IMG/VR virus record: IMGVR_UViG_3300033141_005858
Reading direction: 5' to 3' (one strand)
DNA: 20,000 nt
Origin: an uncultured virus (IMG/VR IMGVR_UViG_3300033141_005858)
Taxonomy: Duplodnaviria; Heunggongvirae; Uroviricota; Caudoviricetes
The position numbers and the translations under genes were made by a program. Below the pieces are notes generated by a model. It did no database searches. It was not told where the DNA came from and saw nothing but the letters and a program-made list of their open reading frames with translations. Each line of letters opens with the position of its first letter. Positions within the stretch are counted from its first letter, which is position 1. Shown piece after piece: positions 3,271-16,689 of this stretch.

Positions 3271-4274
3271 TGAATCCTCCTTTCAATTTTATCAATGATC
3301 TCTAAAGCCCGCTCTCCCATACTATCTAAAGAAAAATGCTCTCTTACAAATTTCGAGGCTTTCCGCCCCTTTGATAAAGCCTGAGGATAATTTTTATACA
3401 CTTTCATCATAACCATACCAGCATCTTCTATATCAATATCTGCCATCCTAGTCATACAACCATAATCCATATCAACAAGGTTGTACTTAATAGGATATGA
3501 ATGCCTTTTATCCATATAATCTTTCATCCCGCTCCAAGCTGGACCTAGCACAGGCAACCCAGTAGACATAGCCTCCAACGGAGGCAATCCCTGACCTTCA
3601 CCACGACTCGGAAATAAAAAAACATGAGATTTATGATACAATTTACAAAGCTCCTCTCTACTTAACTTTCGAACATCAATCTTAGCTTGAAACTTTGGGA
3701 GGTCTCTCTCATATTCATTACCACTCCTTACTGTTGATTTTATAATTAACTCTACATTATTAATACCCTTTTCAACGAAAGTCTGCAACCAAGCTTTTAA
3801 CATTAAATCATAACCTTTTCGAAAACCAGGGGCTCCGACCCATAAAAATTGAAATTTTTCGGGAGTCCTCTCCCGTTCAATAAAAGGAAAGGACTCCACA
3901 TCTATGCCAAGCCTGCATGTGTAAATCGTTTTGGGGTAACCACCCCACTTTATTGCCCTCCGACTATTCTCCGAAGGCACGATTACAAAATCAGCAGGCA
4001 TTATATATTCCATCATATCTTCCGGCATATGATGCGACTCCCACATAGTAAATAATACATTAACCTTACCCTTTACCGGAGTAAAATGCATAGGAGGAAC
4101 ATAATGAATATAAATACCACACTCCGGACCCCCCAAGGCGCCTACTCGCTCAAGTACCTTTGCAAATAAACTTCTCCCAGTTACATAACCTAAAACGGTA
4201 TCTCTAGCCTTAAATTCAGCCTCTGTCCGCTTTGATTTTTCTCCGGCAATTACAAAAACCTTAGAAGTACTCAT
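3267..4274 (-). CDS. Glycosyltransferase family 4 (GT-B)
   Basis: FTMWES, VIVPS, FLWVG...RKGYD, FLFPSRGEGQGLPPLEAMSTGLPV. Confidence 0.9.
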   Translation of the reverse strand: MSTSKVFVIAGEKSKRTEAEFKARDTVLGYVTGRSLFAKVLERVGALGGPECGIYIHYVPPMHFTPVKGKVNVLFTMWESHHMPEDMMEYIMPADFVIVPSENSRRAIKWGGYPKTIYTCRLGIDVESFPFIERERTPEKFQFLWVGAPGFRKGYDLMLKAWLQTFVEKGINNVELIIKSTVRSGNEYERDLPKFQAKIDVRKLSREELCKLYHKSHVFLFPSRGEGQGLPPLEAMSTGLPVLGPAWSGMKDYMDKRHSYPIKYNLVDMDYGCMTRMADIDIEDAGMVMMKVYKNYPQALSKGRKASKFVREHFSLDSMGERALEIIDKIERRIQ

Positions 4275-6408
4275 AAAAATTACCTCCTGTCATTAACATC
4301 AATTTATCCCTGTCCTTCATATCTATAGAAGTTTTAACAGGAAGCCTCCGCTCCTCTTCCCCCAATTTTAAAATAAGCCCATTCACCCCAGGCTTGCTCT
4401 TAATGTATGCTTTCAACTCCTCCAGCACACTTTTATTCATGGTCGCTAAAAGATGCTCAGGCAAATCTAATACAAAAATCCTCTCTCCCGGCTCCTCTTT
4501 TTCATCACCAGAAAGCTCCTTTAAAAGCTTCTCAACATCTCCATTATAATCTTTAAGCTCTTTCATGCTCCCCCAACGATAACCAACACTTGTATTCACA
4601 GGAATTTCAATTCTAGCCCTAAAACCATCTTCCTCCTTTAAGATAAACTTTAAAACCTTCTCAGCCTCCTTTATAAATCCAGATATATTAATTTCCTCAG
4701 GAACCTCATAAGTCAAAGAGTCATGTGTAGTCATTATCAACTTTACTTTGTCTTTAAATACTTTATCCATTTTCAACATCTTCATTTTGAGAATATCTGC
4801 CGAGGTTCCCTGAATCACCGCATTATAAGCCATCCTATCAGCGTCTTCTCTCTTTTCCCAATCCCATACAGAAATATATCTACCAAAAATTGTTTCAACC
4901 CTCCCCCGCGGTCGACCCTCTTTCGCAATCTTTGAAGCCCCATCAAACATCAACCTGTACGCCTCAATGTATTTTCTCCTGAACATCTGAGCTTGTTTAA
5001 ATGAAATATCCATCTCTTCACGCAGCTCATGAAAAAGAGCATTTGCTCCCATCCCATAACTTAAAGCAAAATTCAACTTCTTTCCCAGGTACCTCTGCTT
5101 CTTCGTCACCTTGTCTAAAGGGATCTCAAACACTAAAGAAGCTGTTTTTGTATGATAATCTTCACCTTTTTGAAAAGTGTTCACCAAAGCAGGCTCCCCC
5201 GTCACAGCAGCCGCTACCCTTGCTTCGATCTGAGAATAATCAAACTCCACTAAAAAGCTCCCCTCCGGAGCTATAAAACCTTCTCTCGTATTTATTTCAA
5301 TCTCTTTCCCATCTTTCAATTTCCATTTTTCTTTTCTTGGTATATTCTGTAAATTCGGAGAAGAACAACTAAACCGACCAGTAGGAACCCCAGTTTGATT
5401 ATAAGAAGCATGGATACGTCCATCATCTTCAACATAACCCAGATATTTATTATAATAGGTAGTAGCTCTTTTACTTATCTCTTTGAAAGCAATAATATCA
5501 CGAACAATCGGATACTTCCACTTCATCTTGTTCAACGATTTTTTATCCACTTTAGGTCTTCCTGTCTTAGTATACCCATCACAAGGATAACCCAAAACAT
5601 TAAACAAAACCTCTCCCAACTGCTGTGTGCTGGCTACATTAAAAGAAACCTCCTCCCCAGCCTCAACAGACACCTGAGCTTCAATGGATTTATGAAGAGC
5701 AGAAAGCTCCAAATCTAACCTCTCCTGCTCCTTTTTAAAATAAACCTTGTCAATTAAAACACCATTCTTTATCATCTTGTAAACAACCGGCATCAAACGA
5801 CTCTCTATTTTATAAATCAAGCTCTTCTCAACTAAAGGCTTTAACTTTTTGTAAAGAAGATAACACGCTAAGGCATCCCTCCCACAATAATCAGCCACCT
5901 TATCAGTAGGTAAAGCCCCGATTGTGGCTTTCCTCGGATTTAAACCTTCCTCCTGCATGAACTCTTTAAAACTACCAACTTTAAATGGTAACCTTTCAAC
6001 TTCCGCTACCTCTTTAAGGGATAACCCACGATAACGACCTATAACATAACTCATTATCATAGGATCATATACTTCACAATTGTGGACTATACCCTCAGTC
6101 TCTTCCAAAAAACTAAGCTCAAATTGAGCATTGAATGCAATAAATGGATAATCTGTAAATAAACCTCTCAGCACCCTCATAGCCTCTACTCCATCAAAAG
6201 GCTGATCATGCTGATGCCTAAAAGGCACATAAAAAGCCCCATCTTTTGACGTACAGATGCTTGCTCCGACGATCCGCCCGCTACTGCGGCTTAAAGAATC
6301 AGTTTCAATATCCAGACTGTACAGCACTTTTTTCTTCATCAACTGATCAACAATTCTTTTAAGCTTCTCTAAATCCCGGATAACCGGAAATTTAAAAACT
6401 TCACCCAT
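4261..6408 (-). CDS. polA: Family A DNA polymerase (3'-5' exonuclease + polymerase, no 5'-3' exonuclease)
   Basis: ExoI DIET, ExoII FNAQFE, ExoIII YCGRDA, TGRFSCSSPNLQNIP, motif A DYSQIEAR, motif B RYLGKKLNFALSYG, motif C THDS. Start moved to ATG 6408 behind AAGGAG, because the ORF-track start 6444 lies in the repeat array. Confidence 0.95.
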   Translation of the reverse strand: MGEVFKFPVIRDLEKLKRIVDQLMKKKVLYSLDIETDSLSRSSGRIVGASICTSKDGAFYVPFRHQHDQPFDGVEAMRVLRGLFTDYPFIAFNAQFELSFLEETEGIVHNCEVYDPMIMSYVIGRYRGLSLKEVAEVERLPFKVGSFKEFMQEEGLNPRKATIGALPTDKVADYCGRDALACYLLYKKLKPLVEKSLIYKIESRLMPVVYKMIKNGVLIDKVYFKKEQERLDLELSALHKSIEAQVSVEAGEEVSFNVASTQQLGEVLFNVLGYPCDGYTKTGRPKVDKKSLNKMKWKYPIVRDIIAFKEISKRATTYYNKYLGYVEDDGRIHASYNQTGVPTGRFSCSSPNLQNIPRKEKWKLKDGKEIEINTREGFIAPEGSFLVEFDYSQIEARVAAAVTGEPALVNTFQKGEDYHTKTASLVFEIPLDKVTKKQRYLGKKLNFALSYGMGANALFHELREEMDISFKQAQMFRRKYIEAYRLMFDGASKIAKEGRPRGRVETIFGRYISVWDWEKREDADRMAYNAVIQGTSADILKMKMLKMDKVFKDKVKLIMTTHDSLTYEVPEEINISGFIKEAEKVLKFILKEEDGFRARIEIPVNTSVGYRWGSMKELKDYNGDVEKLLKELSGDEKEEPGERIFVLDLPEHLLATMNKSVLEELKAYIKSKPGVNGLILKLGEEERRLPVKTSIDMKDRDKLMLMTGGNFYEYF

Positions 6409-6412
6409 TTCG

Positions 6413-6432
6413 CACTCCTTTAAATAAATTTT
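6413..6432 (-). repeat. 20-bp direct repeat / RBS leader, copy 1 (polA)
   Basis: CACTCCTTTAAATAAATTTT is identical to 7567-7586. The minus strand contains AAGGAG. Confidence 0.9.
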
Positions 6433-6613
6433 CGCTTTGATCACTTGGGTTCCTTGATTCTCATGACTCGCTTACAGTTAGTGGTCGTCTTGGTTTTCAT
6501 GGCTCGCTTAGAGGTCGTGGACTTCTTTTCCCTCTTGGCTCGCTTACCGGTCATGGGTTTCTTTTGAAACTTGGCTCGCTTAGGTAACATGGATACCTTT
6601 CCTCTCTTGGCTT
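6428..6613 (-). ncRNA. TIGR-like array (downstream), 5 units of 36 nt
   Basis: On the + strand TG(G/A)CTCGCT recurs at 6464, 6500, 6536 and 6572, with partial copies at 6428 and 6608. A second repeat TGGNNNNCT lies at 6446, 6482, 6518, 6554 and 6590. Variable 9-nt spacers lie between them. Confidence 0.88.
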
Positions 6614-7562
6614 AGTAAATCCATCCTCGCTTCTTCGGCTCAATAGTCTTGTGACCAGACTTCAAAACACTCTCTGCATATAAAGAATCTGTAGGCAGCC
6701 CCTTTAAAGTCCTCCCAACCCACCACCAGTCAGCAAGAAAATTCTTCATCACAATACGTAAACCATGCCCATGGCGATGGCTTGGCTTTACATCTTTCCA
6801 GGAACACTCAATTAACTGCCCCTTTGTATTCCTGCTCTTAACTAATGCAACACTCCTCTCTTTCTTCGCCTTCGCTCTGTCATAAACACCCCTGTAAGCT
6901 CCCTTAGACTTCACCTGGCTGTCAGCCATTGTGTAAAGAATAGTCCTCAAATTCTTGTTGCCTCCACTGGATTTCCCCTTCGTAAACCTCTCATGACTTG
7001 AAGTATGTAACCCAGCATATTTCCATAAACTCGAAGCATGCCGCGCCTTCTCAAGATCAATATAAACTAAACAATAAGCAACAGTCACTTCACCAACACC
7101 TTTAACCTGAAGTGCAGACTTGGCTAAGGAGTCCAGCTCCGCATACTCCCTAACAGCCCTCTTCAACTTCTTATCCCGGTCATCTAAAACTTTCTTAACC
7201 CGCTGCCTCTCTTCTTCTAAAAAAGTAACCGTCTGTTCATTTAAAATATCAGTCTTTCTCTGATAAGCCAATAGCTGGTTATTAATTTTCATGTAAGTCT
7301 TCATAACCTGCTTCCGGTCATCAACTAATGCTTTTAAATTCTCAAACTCTTCTTCCCGCTTTCTAAAAGTCCCATGCCTCTTCATGTGACAAATAGGATG
7401 AGCAATTCTGTAGTTTTTAGCATCATAACCCCCTCCATTTGCCTTCGGATTAACCCTATCCGTATCAATAAGAGAATACTCTCCCTCAATAGGTAACCCA
7501 CATAATGCACAAATTTTTCCTTTCGTCTTAATGTAACTCTCTTTTAATCCTTCTTTGCTCAT
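6612..7562 (-). CDS. tasH: TIGR-associated protein, TasH-like (HNH + coiled coil + Nop/IS110-like RNA-binding domain)
   Basis: N-terminal CALC...IDTDRVNPKANGGG...N...HPICHMKRH (HNH fold), then a coiled coil, then VKGVGEVTVAYCL...ASSLWKYAGL...GGNKNLRTILY (Nop/Transposase_20-like). No DEDD RuvC domain. Flanked by dual-repeat 36-nt arrays. Confidence 0.85.
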   Translation of the reverse strand: MSKEGLKESYIKTKGKICALCGLPIEGEYSLIDTDRVNPKANGGGYDAKNYRIAHPICHMKRHGTFRKREEEFENLKALVDDRKQVMKTYMKINNQLLAYQRKTDILNEQTVTFLEEERQRVKKVLDDRDKKLKRAVREYAELDSLAKSALQVKGVGEVTVAYCLVYIDLEKARHASSLWKYAGLHTSSHERFTKGKSSGGNKNLRTILYTMADSQVKSKGAYRGVYDRAKAKKERSVALVKSRNTKGQLIECSWKDVKPSHRHGHGLRIVMKNFLADWWWVGRTLKGLPTDSLYAESVLKSGHKTIEPKKRGWIY

Positions 7563-7566
7563 TGAT

Positions 7567-7586
7567 CACTCCTTTAAATAAATTTT
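7567..7586 (-). repeat. 20-bp direct repeat / RBS leader, copy 2 (tasH)
   Basis: Identical to 6413-6432. Confidence 0.9.
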
Positions 7587-7587
7587 T

Positions 7588-7759
7588 TGGTTTTCTTCGC
7601 CTTTTTGACTCGCTTTCAAGTCATGGGCTTCTCGACTGTATTGGCTCACTCTCATGCAATGGGTTTCTCGTTTATCCTGGCTCGCTTCCATGATCTAGGT
7701 TTCTTGTTGGCTGTGACTCGCTTCCAGTATCTGGGTTTCTTATTGGCTGTGACTCGCTC
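7588..7759 (-). ncRNA. TIGR-like array (upstream), 4 full units + 1 partial
   Basis: Repeat TG(G/A)CTC(G/A)CT at 7606, 7642, 7678, 7714, 7750. Repeat T(G/A)G(G/T)(T/C)TTCT at 7588, 7624, 7660, 7696, 7732. Exact 36-nt period with 9-nt spacers. Confidence 0.9.
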
Positions 7760-7767
7760 TTTATACC

Positions 7768-7974
7768 TTAATGATAAAAAACAAGATTAGTCAAAACCAG
7801 TTCAGCAGTCGGAGAAACAACTTCCCAAAATGGTGTTGTGATAAGATACCCATTTGGAACCATACTTACTTCTGCAACTACCCCTTTTATGTATTCGAAT
7901 TTAAGCACCTCCCCCATCCTTAAATCTTTTAACCTCTTCTTAAATTCATTTTTGTCTTTGGTGACTGTAACCAT
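7768..7974 (-). CDS. Hypothetical protein
   Basis: 68 aa with a GAGG RBS; in the operon. Confidence 0.6.
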   Translation of the reverse strand: MVTVTKDKNEFKKRLKDLRMGEVLKFEYIKGVVAEVSMVPNGYLITTPFWEVVSPTAELVLTNLVFYH

Positions 7975-11823: not shown

Positions 11824-12546
11824 TTACTTCTTAAATTCACCATACTTTTTTTCCACCGATAACGCATACCTCAAACTAGCCTTTGGTGTTCCCTTATCAT
11901 AAGCTTCCATCAAACTAGAAACCGCACGAGTACCCCAATTATAACGACTCAATGCCAACTTCCAATCATCTTTTGAAGCAACACCAAAAGCTATAAAACG
12001 CCTCTGTAACGTAATTAAACAATTAACCCCAATCATAAAATTCATAACAGGGTCTTTTAAATAAGAAATAACCTCCTCTCTAGACAAACCCGGCATATTA
12101 AAATTCTTCTCAAGAACCCCAGTAGCAGTCAAAGGCATAACCTGCATTAAACCAATAGCCCCCACATAACTCTCAGCCATAGGATTAAAACCACTCTCAA
12201 CCTCAATAACAGAAAAAATTTTCCAATAATCTAAACCAAGAGGATATGTTGTCCCTGAGGATCCATATTCCTTATGATATTTATAGGTCTTAACTGATAA
12301 ATCCCTGATTTCTTGATGAGACAAATATTCTCCGGCTTTAGAAAACCAAATATCCTCTATAACCTGATAAAGCATTATATCATCACTAACTTCTTTAAAA
12401 GATTCTATTTTAGTTACCAGGTTATTGTTTTTTTCCTCCAACCCTTCTAACCTATGGCTAACAAAGTAAAAACATAACAATGAAGCAAAAATTAAAAGAA
12501 AAAACAAAACAACCAAAATACCCATAAACACATCTCTCTTATTCAT
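11824..12546 (-). CDS. Lytic transglycosylase (SLT domain) with N-terminal membrane anchor
   Basis: IEVESGFNPMAES..GAIGLMQVMP.T, DPVMN, ALSRYNWG. Confidence 0.9.
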   Translation of the reverse strand: MNKRDVFMGILVVLFFLLIFASLLCFYFVSHRLEGLEEKNNNLVTKIESFKEVSDDIMLYQVIEDIWFSKAGEYLSHQEIRDLSVKTYKYHKEYGSSGTTYPLGLDYWKIFSVIEVESGFNPMAESYVGAIGLMQVMPLTATGVLEKNFNMPGLSREEVISYLKDPVMNFMIGVNCLITLQRRFIAFGVASKDDWKLALSRYNWGTRAVSSLMEAYDKGTPKASLRYALSVEKKYGEFKK

Positions 12547-13091
12547 CTTATAGCCTCCAAATCAAGATCACTTTCAACTTCATCCCCCCAAACATCCCAA
12601 CCATACCGCCTCTCTCTAGCAAAAAGCTCTATTTTATTAAAACCCTCTCTATCAGATACTTTATTAATAAAATGAATAAGCATAAGAGGCTTCTCTGAAT
12701 GCCGCGACCCCCTCGGAGCTAAAATAGCAGTCCTTCCCTGTTGTCTTTTACCATCCACTACTTTGTAAGGGAGCATACCTCGAACACCAAATAAACAATG
12801 CTCAGTCTGCCCCCTAAAATATTGACCTAAGCCTATTCTATCCTTCACCCACGTAATTATAGTCTTATAATCAAAACCCCAGGCTTTCATAACTTTTAAA
12901 CCATCTGGCAGAAAATTATTAGTAACCCACAAATACAAATGACAATTATCATCGGCAATCTTTGCTACTGGCAATTTAATAATATCCTCTGTCTTCATCA
13001 AAGAATAATGCCTATCGGCTCCTCTCTTTATACGACCTCCCCCTCTTTCATACCATGGAGGATCCGCATAAATAATCTGATATTTTTTCAT
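12543..13091 (-). CDS. MT-A70 family N6-adenine methyltransferase
   Basis: IIYADPPW, LYLWVTN, WGF.YKT.ITWVK, EHCLFG, HSEKP, IELFAR, GWDVWGDE. Confidence 0.92.
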   Translation of the reverse strand: MKKYQIIYADPPWYERGGGRIKRGADRHYSLMKTEDIIKLPVAKIADDNCHLYLWVTNNFLPDGLKVMKAWGFDYKTIITWVKDRIGLGQYFRGQTEHCLFGVRGMLPYKVVDGKRQQGRTAILAPRGSRHSEKPLMLIHFINKVSDREGFNKIELFARERRYGWDVWGDEVESDLDLEAIR

Positions 13092-16075: not shown

Positions 16076-16270
16076 TCACTCCTTTTTCCCCATACTTTTG
16101 TTATTTTCATTCGATTTCTCCTTAAAGTTATCCCGAATATCACAAAGGACTTCTATGATAAATTCAAAACCCCATCGTAAAATCAATGCCATATCGGCAG
16201 TGTTTGTTCTACAGGAAGTTGTTTGTAAAAAACCACTTACTATTTCCTCTTTACTTCTTTGTTTAGTCAT
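16076..16270 (-). CDS. Hypothetical protein
   Basis: 64 aa, ATGA-coupled. Confidence 0.55.
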   Translation of the reverse strand: MTKQRSKEEIVSGFLQTTSCRTNTADMALILRWGFEFIIEVLCDIRDNFKEKSNENNKSMGKKE

Positions 16271-16689
16271 TTCTTGCCCCTTACCCTTTCATTCCATGCC
16301 TCTTTAGCACCCTGACTTGTATGTGCTTTCGGACCAAGAGCTCCACAATATTCACAACGAATTTGAATCGGTTCGATTTGTGGTTCCAAGAAAAAATTAA
16401 ATAATTTCTGCTTACGACTGCCACAAAATGGGCAAGGTTTTAATTCGATTTGTTTAGTCATTTTCATCTCCTTCTTGGGAGTTTTAACATACTGCGGAAA
16501 TCTGTAGGTGCAGTCTTGGCAATATACGTTTAGAAACTCGACCCCTGACCAGTCAGAATCACGATAAGGACTAAACACCCCCCCACCAATCTGGTATGTT
16601 CGTCGTGTTTTTCCACCGCACTTAGGACATTTAGGCGGATTCTCTGTAAAAGGAACCCTATCCTCTGGATAGTAAGTGTAATCACTCAT
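16267..16689 (-). CDS. Zn-ribbon protein with C-terminal Lar-like (restriction alleviation) domain
   Basis: CPKCG...CQDC, then ELKPCPFCGS...IRCEYCGA.GP...AKEAWNER. Confidence 0.7.
   Translation of the reverse strand: MSDYTYYPEDRVPFTENPPKCPKCGGKTRRTYQIGGGVFSPYRDSDWSGVEFLNVYCQDCTYRFPQYVKTPKKEMKMTKQIELKPCPFCGSRKQKLFNFFLEPQIEPIQIRCEYCGALGPKAHTSQGAKEAWNERVRGKK

Follow-up and report, generated by a model that had tools for sequence, protein, structure and literature searches.

An arginine at the catalytic-histidine position of a phage TasH HNH domain is probably a family hallmark and not a defect

The window analysed here, a stretch of 20,000 nucleotides from an uncultured virus of the Caudoviricetes (IMG/VR record IMGVR_UViG_3300033141_005858), encodes on its minus strand a TasH protein with an N-terminal HNH domain, in which an arginine (R36) stands where the canonical domain carries its general-base histidine. 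An earlier note on this DNA had read the substitution as an apparent loss of the catalytic histidine and had proposed either a nuclease-dead, RNA-guided DNA binder or a nuclease with altered chemistry. We consider it rather likely that the protein is a dual-repeat-type TasH, the RNA-guided DNA-cutting effector of a phage TIGR-Tas system, in which arginine at the histidine position is the normal state and not a defect. The protein belongs to the TasH family, R36 is one of the most conserved residues of the HNH domain, and SpTasH of Salicola phage CGphi29, the nearest protein with a solved structure, carries the same residue and is an active nuclease. The features of the gene and of its HNH domain on which this reading is built are as follows.

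6612..7562, minus strand: tasH gene, 316 amino acids, with N-terminal HNH domain, putative central coiled coil and C-terminal Nop domain (open reading frame, Pfam, phmmer)
7371..7514, minus strand: HNH (His-Me finger) domain, amino acids 17-64 (AlphaFold2 (AF2) model, Foldseek, VIA)
7464..7466, minus strand: codon of D33, near-invariant acidic residue of strand 1, paired with the E of colicin E-L-H-H
7458..7460, minus strand: codon of D35, the residue before the catalytic-His position and a likely metal ligand, paired with the first H of the HH in maturase and colicin E7
7455..7457, minus strand: codon of R36, which reads AGG (CCT on the plus strand) and stands where the canonical domain has its general-base His (translation, alignments)
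7413..7415, minus strand: codon of N50, the Asn of the HNH motif, paired with the colicin and maturase Asn
7386..7388, minus strand: codon of H59, the helix His, equivalent to SpTasH H54 (phmmer alignment)
7374..7379, minus strand: codons of R62 and H63, H63 being the +4 His of H-x3-H and R62 the partner that co-varies with D35
7389..7511, minus strand: zinc-knuckle ligands C18 (7509-7511), C21 (7500-7502), H55 (7398-7400) and C58 (7389-7391), aligned to C-x2-C...H-x2-C of maturase 6me0_C
6651..6680, minus strand: Y295 (6678-6680) and H304 (6651-6653), which correspond to Y289/H296, the tigRNA-processing dyad of SpTasH (phmmer alignment)

The open frame at 6612-7562 (minus strand) translates into a protein of 316 amino acids (P0001), of which residues 9-315 are matched by the SpTasH chains in the PDB with an E-value of 1.1e-89 (phmmer). 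The two proteins are 47.5% identical (tblastn), and the HNH domain of SpTasH is also matched by the TasH HNH profile (E 4.5e-21). Eight PDB entries are available for SpTasH, including 9W03 and 9W04, the latter a complex with tigRNA and double-stranded DNA. The C-terminal Nop/IS110-type RNA-binding domain scores 31 bits against PF02371, for which the cut-off is 21.3 (Pfam). A single-sequence AF2 model of the whole protein had a mean pLDDT of 42.7 and was unusable, and a model of the HNH domain was instead obtained from an alignment of 49 TasH HNH domains, which also provided the HNH profile. The only part of the single-sequence model at pLDDT 67-89 comprises two long helices (residues 65-102 and 109-152), which align with the coiled-coil region of SpTasH (phmmer) and may serve dimerisation. 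The domain model (pLDDT 86.5) has strands at residues 33-36 and 51-54 and a helix at 56-63, and thus contains the beta-beta-alpha-metal fold, the HNH domains of Cas9, McrA, Gme, EndoVII and colicin being among its matches. Its top structural match is SpTasH chain 9w04_A (Foldseek E 5.4e-6, TMq 0.78; VIA Z 9.3, root-mean-square deviation 2.2 over 70 residues), followed by those other HNH domains at Z 5-7 (VIA). The identification of a Tas protein with an HNH domain in the earlier note is therefore borne out by phmmer, Pfam and the domain model alike, and the span it gave for the domain (7370-7515) matches the 7371-7514 found here.

In the translation, the HNH motif reads C18-x2-C21, D33-T-D35-R36-V-N-P39-K, G43-G44, N50, H55-P-I-C58-H59 and M-K-R62-H63. 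The residues C18, C21, D33, D35, R36, N50, H55, C58 and H59, together with the AGG codon at 7455-7457, were named exactly in the earlier note. When the N-terminal 75 residues were searched with phmmer, D-T-D-R-V-N-P-K was aligned over E-I-H-H-I-L-P-K of the HNH domain of a group II intron maturase (6me0_C, E 0.0013), and the maturase motif C-x2-C...H-x2-C-H-x3-H fell on the zinc ligands, H59 and H63 of the window protein. The profile of 49 TasH HNH domains matched the colicin E7 DNase chains with an E-value of about 0.007, E-L-H-H-E-K-P being placed over D-t-d-R-k-k-p and the colicin N and H-x3-H falling on N50, H59 and H63. In colicin-type sites, the H-x3-H motif and the residue before the catalytic His bind the metal. 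In the structural match to SpCas9 (6o0y_A), residues 5..63 of the model correspond to chain residues 808..867 (VIA), and an offset of 804 taken from the C-terminal range ends puts R36, D35, N50 and H59 on Cas9 residues 840, 839, 854 and 863, which is range arithmetic and not a residue-level superposition. These four are catalytic or motif residues of the Cas9 HNH domain, H840 being a catalytic one.

In the AF2 domain model, R36 is the last residue of strand 1 (33-36), which is where His-Me fingers have their catalytic His (PMC5714182). The same source states that metal binding in His-Me fingers often involves an Asp, Glu or His preceding the catalytic His, along with a polar residue at helix position +4. 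Among the features of a canonical His-Me finger, the window protein has the Asn of the inter-strand loop (N50) and, at the level of the alignments, H59, D35 and H63 at the metal-ligand positions; the catalytic His at the end of strand 1 is absent and Arg36 is found there. Because its catalytic His is replaced by Arg, we class the domain not as a canonical HNH domain but as a divergent, TasH-type His-Me finger. The maturase and colicin E7 alignments, together with the modelled strand end and the Cas9 range match, confirm that R36 occupies the canonical general-base His position, as the earlier note had maintained.

Conservation was assessed in an alignment of 269 proteins (120 from a word-indexed search, 148 from an exhaustive search of cluster representatives, and SpTasH), 197 of which cover the HNH region. 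R36 is Arg in 186 of the 197 domains, and is thus as conserved as the metal-ligand and Asn positions (94-97%): H59 is His in 187/197, H63 is His in 186/197 and N50 is Asn in 185/195. D33 (Asp in 187/193), G44 (Gly in 190/193) and position 35, which holds either His (115/197) or Asp (71/197; 186/197 together), complete the most conserved columns of a domain whose mean identity to that of the window protein is 43%. The 11 sequences lacking Arg36 are distant members of the family, with Lys in three and His in three, and a few of these non-Arg members show a canonical-looking site with His at or beside the R36 column. An arginine retained in 186 of 197 domains marks the residue as a selected hallmark of the main TasH clade, and conservation of the metal-ligand positions at this level is not what would be expected of a decayed active site. 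R36 is accordingly a family hallmark and no lesion of this particular gene. The earlier note had suggested examining whether the Asp-Arg pair is conserved in homologues; the arginine is, and the residue before it is Asp in 71 and His in 115 sequences.

SpTasH provides the link between this site and activity. According to the phage record, its gene encodes D28-V-D30-R31, N45 and H54-M-E-R57-H58, and all HNH core residues equal those of the window protein. Cleavage by SpTasH depends on the HNH domain and on tigRNA (PMC12045711). A further paper describes the enzyme as a nuclease that cuts both DNA strands, with recruitment of its two HNH domains to the target, and used 5 mM MgCl2 in its assays (Nucleic Acids Research (NAR) 2026, PMC13421893). 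Furthermore, H54A has served as a nuclease-dead control, addition of MgCl2 starts cleavage, and activity in cells has been reported (bioRxiv 10.64898/2026.08.11.744272). No HNH active-site residues are named in the text and supplement of the NAR paper, and in the available part of the bioRxiv manuscript H54A is the only one named as such. The plasmid table of the Science paper gives the HNH-inactivating SpTasH mutant as H53A/N57A. In the phage record, residue 53 of native SpTasH is Ala and residue 57 is Arg; the label may be an offset or typing slip for H54/H58.

Since SpTasH is active with the same Asp-Arg motif, the reading of the window protein as a dead binder is not supported. The earlier note had held that efficient cleavage of targets by the wild-type protein would speak against such a binder; cleavage has been observed for SpTasH, which serves as a proxy with the same motif, and not for the window protein itself. 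The other possibility raised in the note, that the nuclease uses an altered chemistry, fits the data and is plausible, but would belong to the whole family and is not peculiar to this gene.

If the window protein works like SpTasH, the two 36-nt arrays that flank its gene would be transcribed, and the loop bearing Y295 and H304 would cut the transcript into 36-nt tigRNAs. A TasH dimer would carry one tigRNA, the two 8-nt spacers of which would pair with opposite strands of the target, and each HNH domain would then cut one strand with the help of a divalent metal, probably Mg2+. With D33, D35, N50, H59 and H63, the remainder of a colicin-like HNH site is intact, and it is the likeness to such a site (an acidic residue, a ligand before the His position, an Asn and H-x3-H) on account of which D35, H59 and H63 are taken as the ligands that would hold this metal. 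The attacking water might be present as a hydroxide on the metal or be activated by a carboxylate or His nearby, and R36 would stabilise the scissile phosphate or the transition state. The outcome would be a real but slow nuclease, in which the exact role of R36, like the activity of the window protein, is inferred.

Positions 35 and 62 of the site are coupled. In the 197-row alignment, Asp35/Arg62 and His35/Glu62 each account for 61 sequences, and the combinations Asp/Glu and His/Arg never occur. A quick, unrooted FastTree phylogeny was computed from columns 66-316 only, for 184 of the 197 rows (13 rows with fewer than 200 residues in these columns were dropped). On this tree, the Asp/His state at position 35 changes at least 30 times, a count that could be inflated by domain exchange; the direction of the association is consistent all the same. 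Supported branches yield 9 independent pairs; on average, Arg62 goes along with Asp35 in 7.3 of them, and the opposite is seen in none (sign test, median p 0.016, range 0.004-0.06). Both the window protein and SpTasH have the Asp/Arg version. The coupling may reflect metal preference or a tuning of the site, and no mention of it was found in the texts consulted. We tentatively entertain the broader possibility that the TasH HNH domains form a large, active His-Me group with Arg in place of the general-base His and a metal site that is often swapped between D35/R62 and H35/E62. In that case, the TasH family would activate water differently, and which metal is preferred, or how fast the target is cut, would depend on the swap, which could explain why the enzyme binds first and cuts very slowly.

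Two alternatives retain an active nuclease and assign the chemistry otherwise. It is rather unlikely that another residue, H63 or that at position 35, is the general base, with R36 acting as a phosphate clamp or in a structural capacity and the alignment register being misleading. H63 is conserved like H59, the switching of a His-rich position 35 with helix residue 62 points to a tuned site beside the helix, and the structural evidence for the register of R36 is at the level of ranges and not of residues. Sequence and profile alignments, however, give one and the same register, with which the range-level Cas9 match agrees; in colicin-type sites, and under the general rule given above, the metal is bound by H-x3-H and by the residue preceding the catalytic His; and position 35 is Asp, not His, in both the window protein and SpTasH. 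We likewise see little probability in the proposal that R36 itself is the general base, made reactive by D33, D35 and the metal, as has been proposed for a few other enzyme classes. R36 is near-invariant, is flanked by the near-invariant D33 and by D/H35 and lies on the exact His position, and an inefficient base would be in keeping with the slow cleavage by SpTasH. Arginine is nevertheless rare as a general base in enzymes, slow kinetics may stem from conformational steps or from HNH recruitment, and Lys and His each replace Arg in three of the 11 sequences that lack it.

Several observations weigh against the view of the window protein as a DNA-cutting effector. Its activity is deduced from a homologue of only 47.5% identity, and its HNH domain scores 20.4 bits against PF01844 (E 5.8e-4), marginally under the curated cut-off of 21.4 (Pfam). 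Of three His-Me groups without a catalytic His, two are said to be no longer catalytically active (PMC5714182). Natural repressors exist among the other Tas proteins (bioRxiv 10.64898/2026.09.09.750476), and binding alone could thus suffice biologically. SpTasH itself cleaves at a rate of 0.01 per min, about 6000-fold below SpCas9, or at 0.05-0.06 per min after a start with Mg2+, and its H54A variant still represses green fluorescent protein (GFP) (bioRxiv 10.64898/2026.08.11.744272), which means that a natural role in binding only is possible even for an active enzyme. The slow rates may fit a site without an efficient base, and may equally fit slow domain movements; the available part of that manuscript draws no link between the slow rate and a missing base.

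A nuclease-dead binder, a tigRNA-guided repressor or recruiter whose HNH domain fell silent with the loss of its general-base His, would accommodate the position of R36 and the inactive His-Me groups as well as the repression by H54A SpTasH and by nuclease-lacking TasA and catalytically dead TasR, which repress transcription, but we judge it improbable, as SpTasH cuts with the same D-x-D-R, N and H-x-x-R-H residues, the metal-ligand and Asn positions conserved at 94-97% in the 197 domains would be needless in a dead domain, and the deadness of TasR is ascribed to an inactive RuvC, with TasH not among the repressors named in the available part of that source (bioRxiv 10.64898/2026.09.09.750476).

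The reading as a dual-repeat-type TasH effector extends to the locus around the gene, in which tandem arrays with a period of 36 bp were found on both sides of tasH with Tandem Repeats Finder (TRF).

7580..7759, minus strand: upstream TIGR array of five 36-nt units, U1-U5, U5 being without a closing edge repeat (TRF period 36, units in register, edge-repeat scan)
6428..6581, minus strand: downstream TIGR array of four 36-nt units, D1-D4 (6581 to 6438), plus a partial terminal edge repeat (TRF, edge-repeat scan)
7567..7586, minus strand: leader of 20 nt that contains a ribosome-binding site, located between the upstream array and the start codon of tasH, an exact duplicate of 6413-6432
6413..6432, minus strand: the 20-nt leader again, here lying between the downstream array and the DNA polymerase gene with its start codon, an exact duplicate of 7567-7586

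Read on the strand of the gene, each unit is made up of a 10-nt edge repeat and then a 10-nt loop repeat, both followed by a spacer of 8 nt (A after the edge repeat, B after the loop repeat). The two 8-nt spacers agree with the 16 variable nucleotides per SpTIGR unit given in the Science paper, and the same edge-repeat 10-mer is present in both window arrays and in the SpTIGR array. With up to one mismatch, eight edge repeats lie in the arrays, and the whole window contains 10 against 1.34 expected. The guide-processing dyad is present as well, Y295 and H304 pairing with Y289 and H296 of SpTasH, which are the residues for autonomous tigRNA processing in that protein (PMC13421893; bioRxiv 10.64898/2026.09.09.750476). 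With two arrays bearing the SpTIGR edge repeat and the Y/H dyad, the TIGR locus is complete and looks functional.

The 20-nt leader was matched twice, compared with 0.04 matches expected, and array and leader together flank tasH as direct repeats, which hints at a duplication or a cassette-like insertion. Units U1 and U2 (7688-7759, minus strand) have near-identical spacers, with one difference in A and two in B, as if one unit had recently been duplicated and the copies had then diverged. Immediately ahead of the edge repeat, the bases are mostly TG-purine in the upstream array (7616-7759, minus strand) and mostly pyrimidine-T or GT in the downstream array (6438-6581, minus strand), so that the two arrays may be processed or bound slightly differently. 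No perfect self-target of the nine units, which would have spoken for a role in regulation, was found within the window in a scan that allowed up to 2 mismatches and gaps of 0-4 in each of two strand arrangements; two matches at 2 mismatches were returned, one of them inside the array itself, and about one would be expected by chance. The edge-repeat pattern of the window had no match at the related locus L002, which has an H-type TasH. When TRF was run on the Salicola locus L001 (2480-2860), no repeat was reported although a TIGR array is obvious there by eye, and TRF alone is therefore unreliable for arrays with short repeats and variable spacers.

Four repetitive open reading frames of 40-67 codons lie wholly inside the arrays (6441-6590, minus strand; 6445-6567, plus strand; 7566-7691, minus strand; 7587-7790, plus strand) and are most likely repeat artefacts and not genes. 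The listed open reading frame of the DNA polymerase (4261-6444, minus strand) has its GTG start inside the downstream array, and the ATG at 6406-6408, right after the 20-nt leader, is the more likely start. The remainder of the window is phage-like, encoding in addition to this DNA polymerase endolysin-like proteins, a DNA methyltransferase, an exonuclease and a Lar-like protein. The DNA methyltransferase and the Lar-like restriction-alleviation protein (12543-13091 and 16267-16689, both minus strand) lie in the same phage region, and the phage thus carries other anti-restriction functions near the TIGR locus. Within TasH itself, the window protein has a complete C-C-H-C zinc knuckle like that of the maturase HNH domain, and at least two of the ligands are lost in SpTasH and in most homologues. 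All four are kept in a minority of homologues (at least 22 of the 197, in the listed combinations), and their loss in SpTasH and most other members indicates that the zinc knuckle is dispensable in the TasH family.

On sequence grounds, there is nothing exceptional about the window gene within the phage TIGR-TasH family. Arginine in place of His in a proven nuclease is unusual for the His-Me superfamily, yet it is already contained in published structures. For annotation, this means that the window tasH should be treated as an intact TIGR-TasH nuclease locus and not as a degenerate one, and that a flag for a missing catalytic His would be a false alarm for nearly every member of the TasH family. 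For enzymology, a proven nuclease family keeps an Arg at the near-invariant position of the His-Me His, together with a coupled D/R or H/E pair at the metal site. For the engineering of TasH as a compact editor free of a protospacer adjacent motif (PAM), the slow chemistry may lie in R36 and the residues at positions 35 and 62.

Among known systems, the window locus most closely resembles that of SpTasH, with which it shares the full-length architecture, the HNH core D-x-D-R/N/H-x-x-R-H, the Y/H dyad, a phage-encoded gene, the 10+8+10+8 unit layout (36 nt) and an identical edge repeat. SpTasH differs in lacking the C-C-H-C zinc knuckle that the window protein keeps, and its loop repeat differs from that of the window at a few positions. 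Furthermore, the window arrays flank the gene on both sides, whereas in the stretches of the Salicola locus L001 that were read the array lies downstream, and no array was found in the 200 bases upstream of the SpTasH gene. Activity has been demonstrated for SpTasH and would apply to the window TasH by analogy.

The DNases of colicins E7 and E9 share with TasH the succession of an acidic residue, any residue, a metal ligand and the general-base position, followed by P, G-G-x-Y, N and P-x-x-H-x3-H. In TasH, however, the general-base His of the colicin H-H pair is Arg, and in the window protein the first His is Asp; the colicins are, moreover, secreted toxins and not RNA-guided. The HNH domains of Cas9 and IscB have the beta-beta-alpha-metal fold in common with TasH (Z 6-7), cut the guide-paired strand and carry an Asp before the general-base position, but their sequence identity to the TasH HNH domain is 10-20%. 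Cas9 HNH has the canonical D-H pair, and a helix Asn where TasH has H59. PacI, of His-Me finger group 20, is likewise an active nuclease without a catalytic His; there, a Tyr of the omega loop takes over the role of the His (PMC5714182), whereas in TasH the His position itself holds an Arg. Finally, dead TasR and nuclease-lacking TasA belong to the same TIGR-Tas family and mediate RNA-guided repression, but have an inactive RuvC domain or no nuclease domain and use stem-loop tigRNAs (bioRxiv 10.64898/2026.09.09.750476), in contrast to the conserved HNH metal site and dual-repeat arrays of the window TasH.

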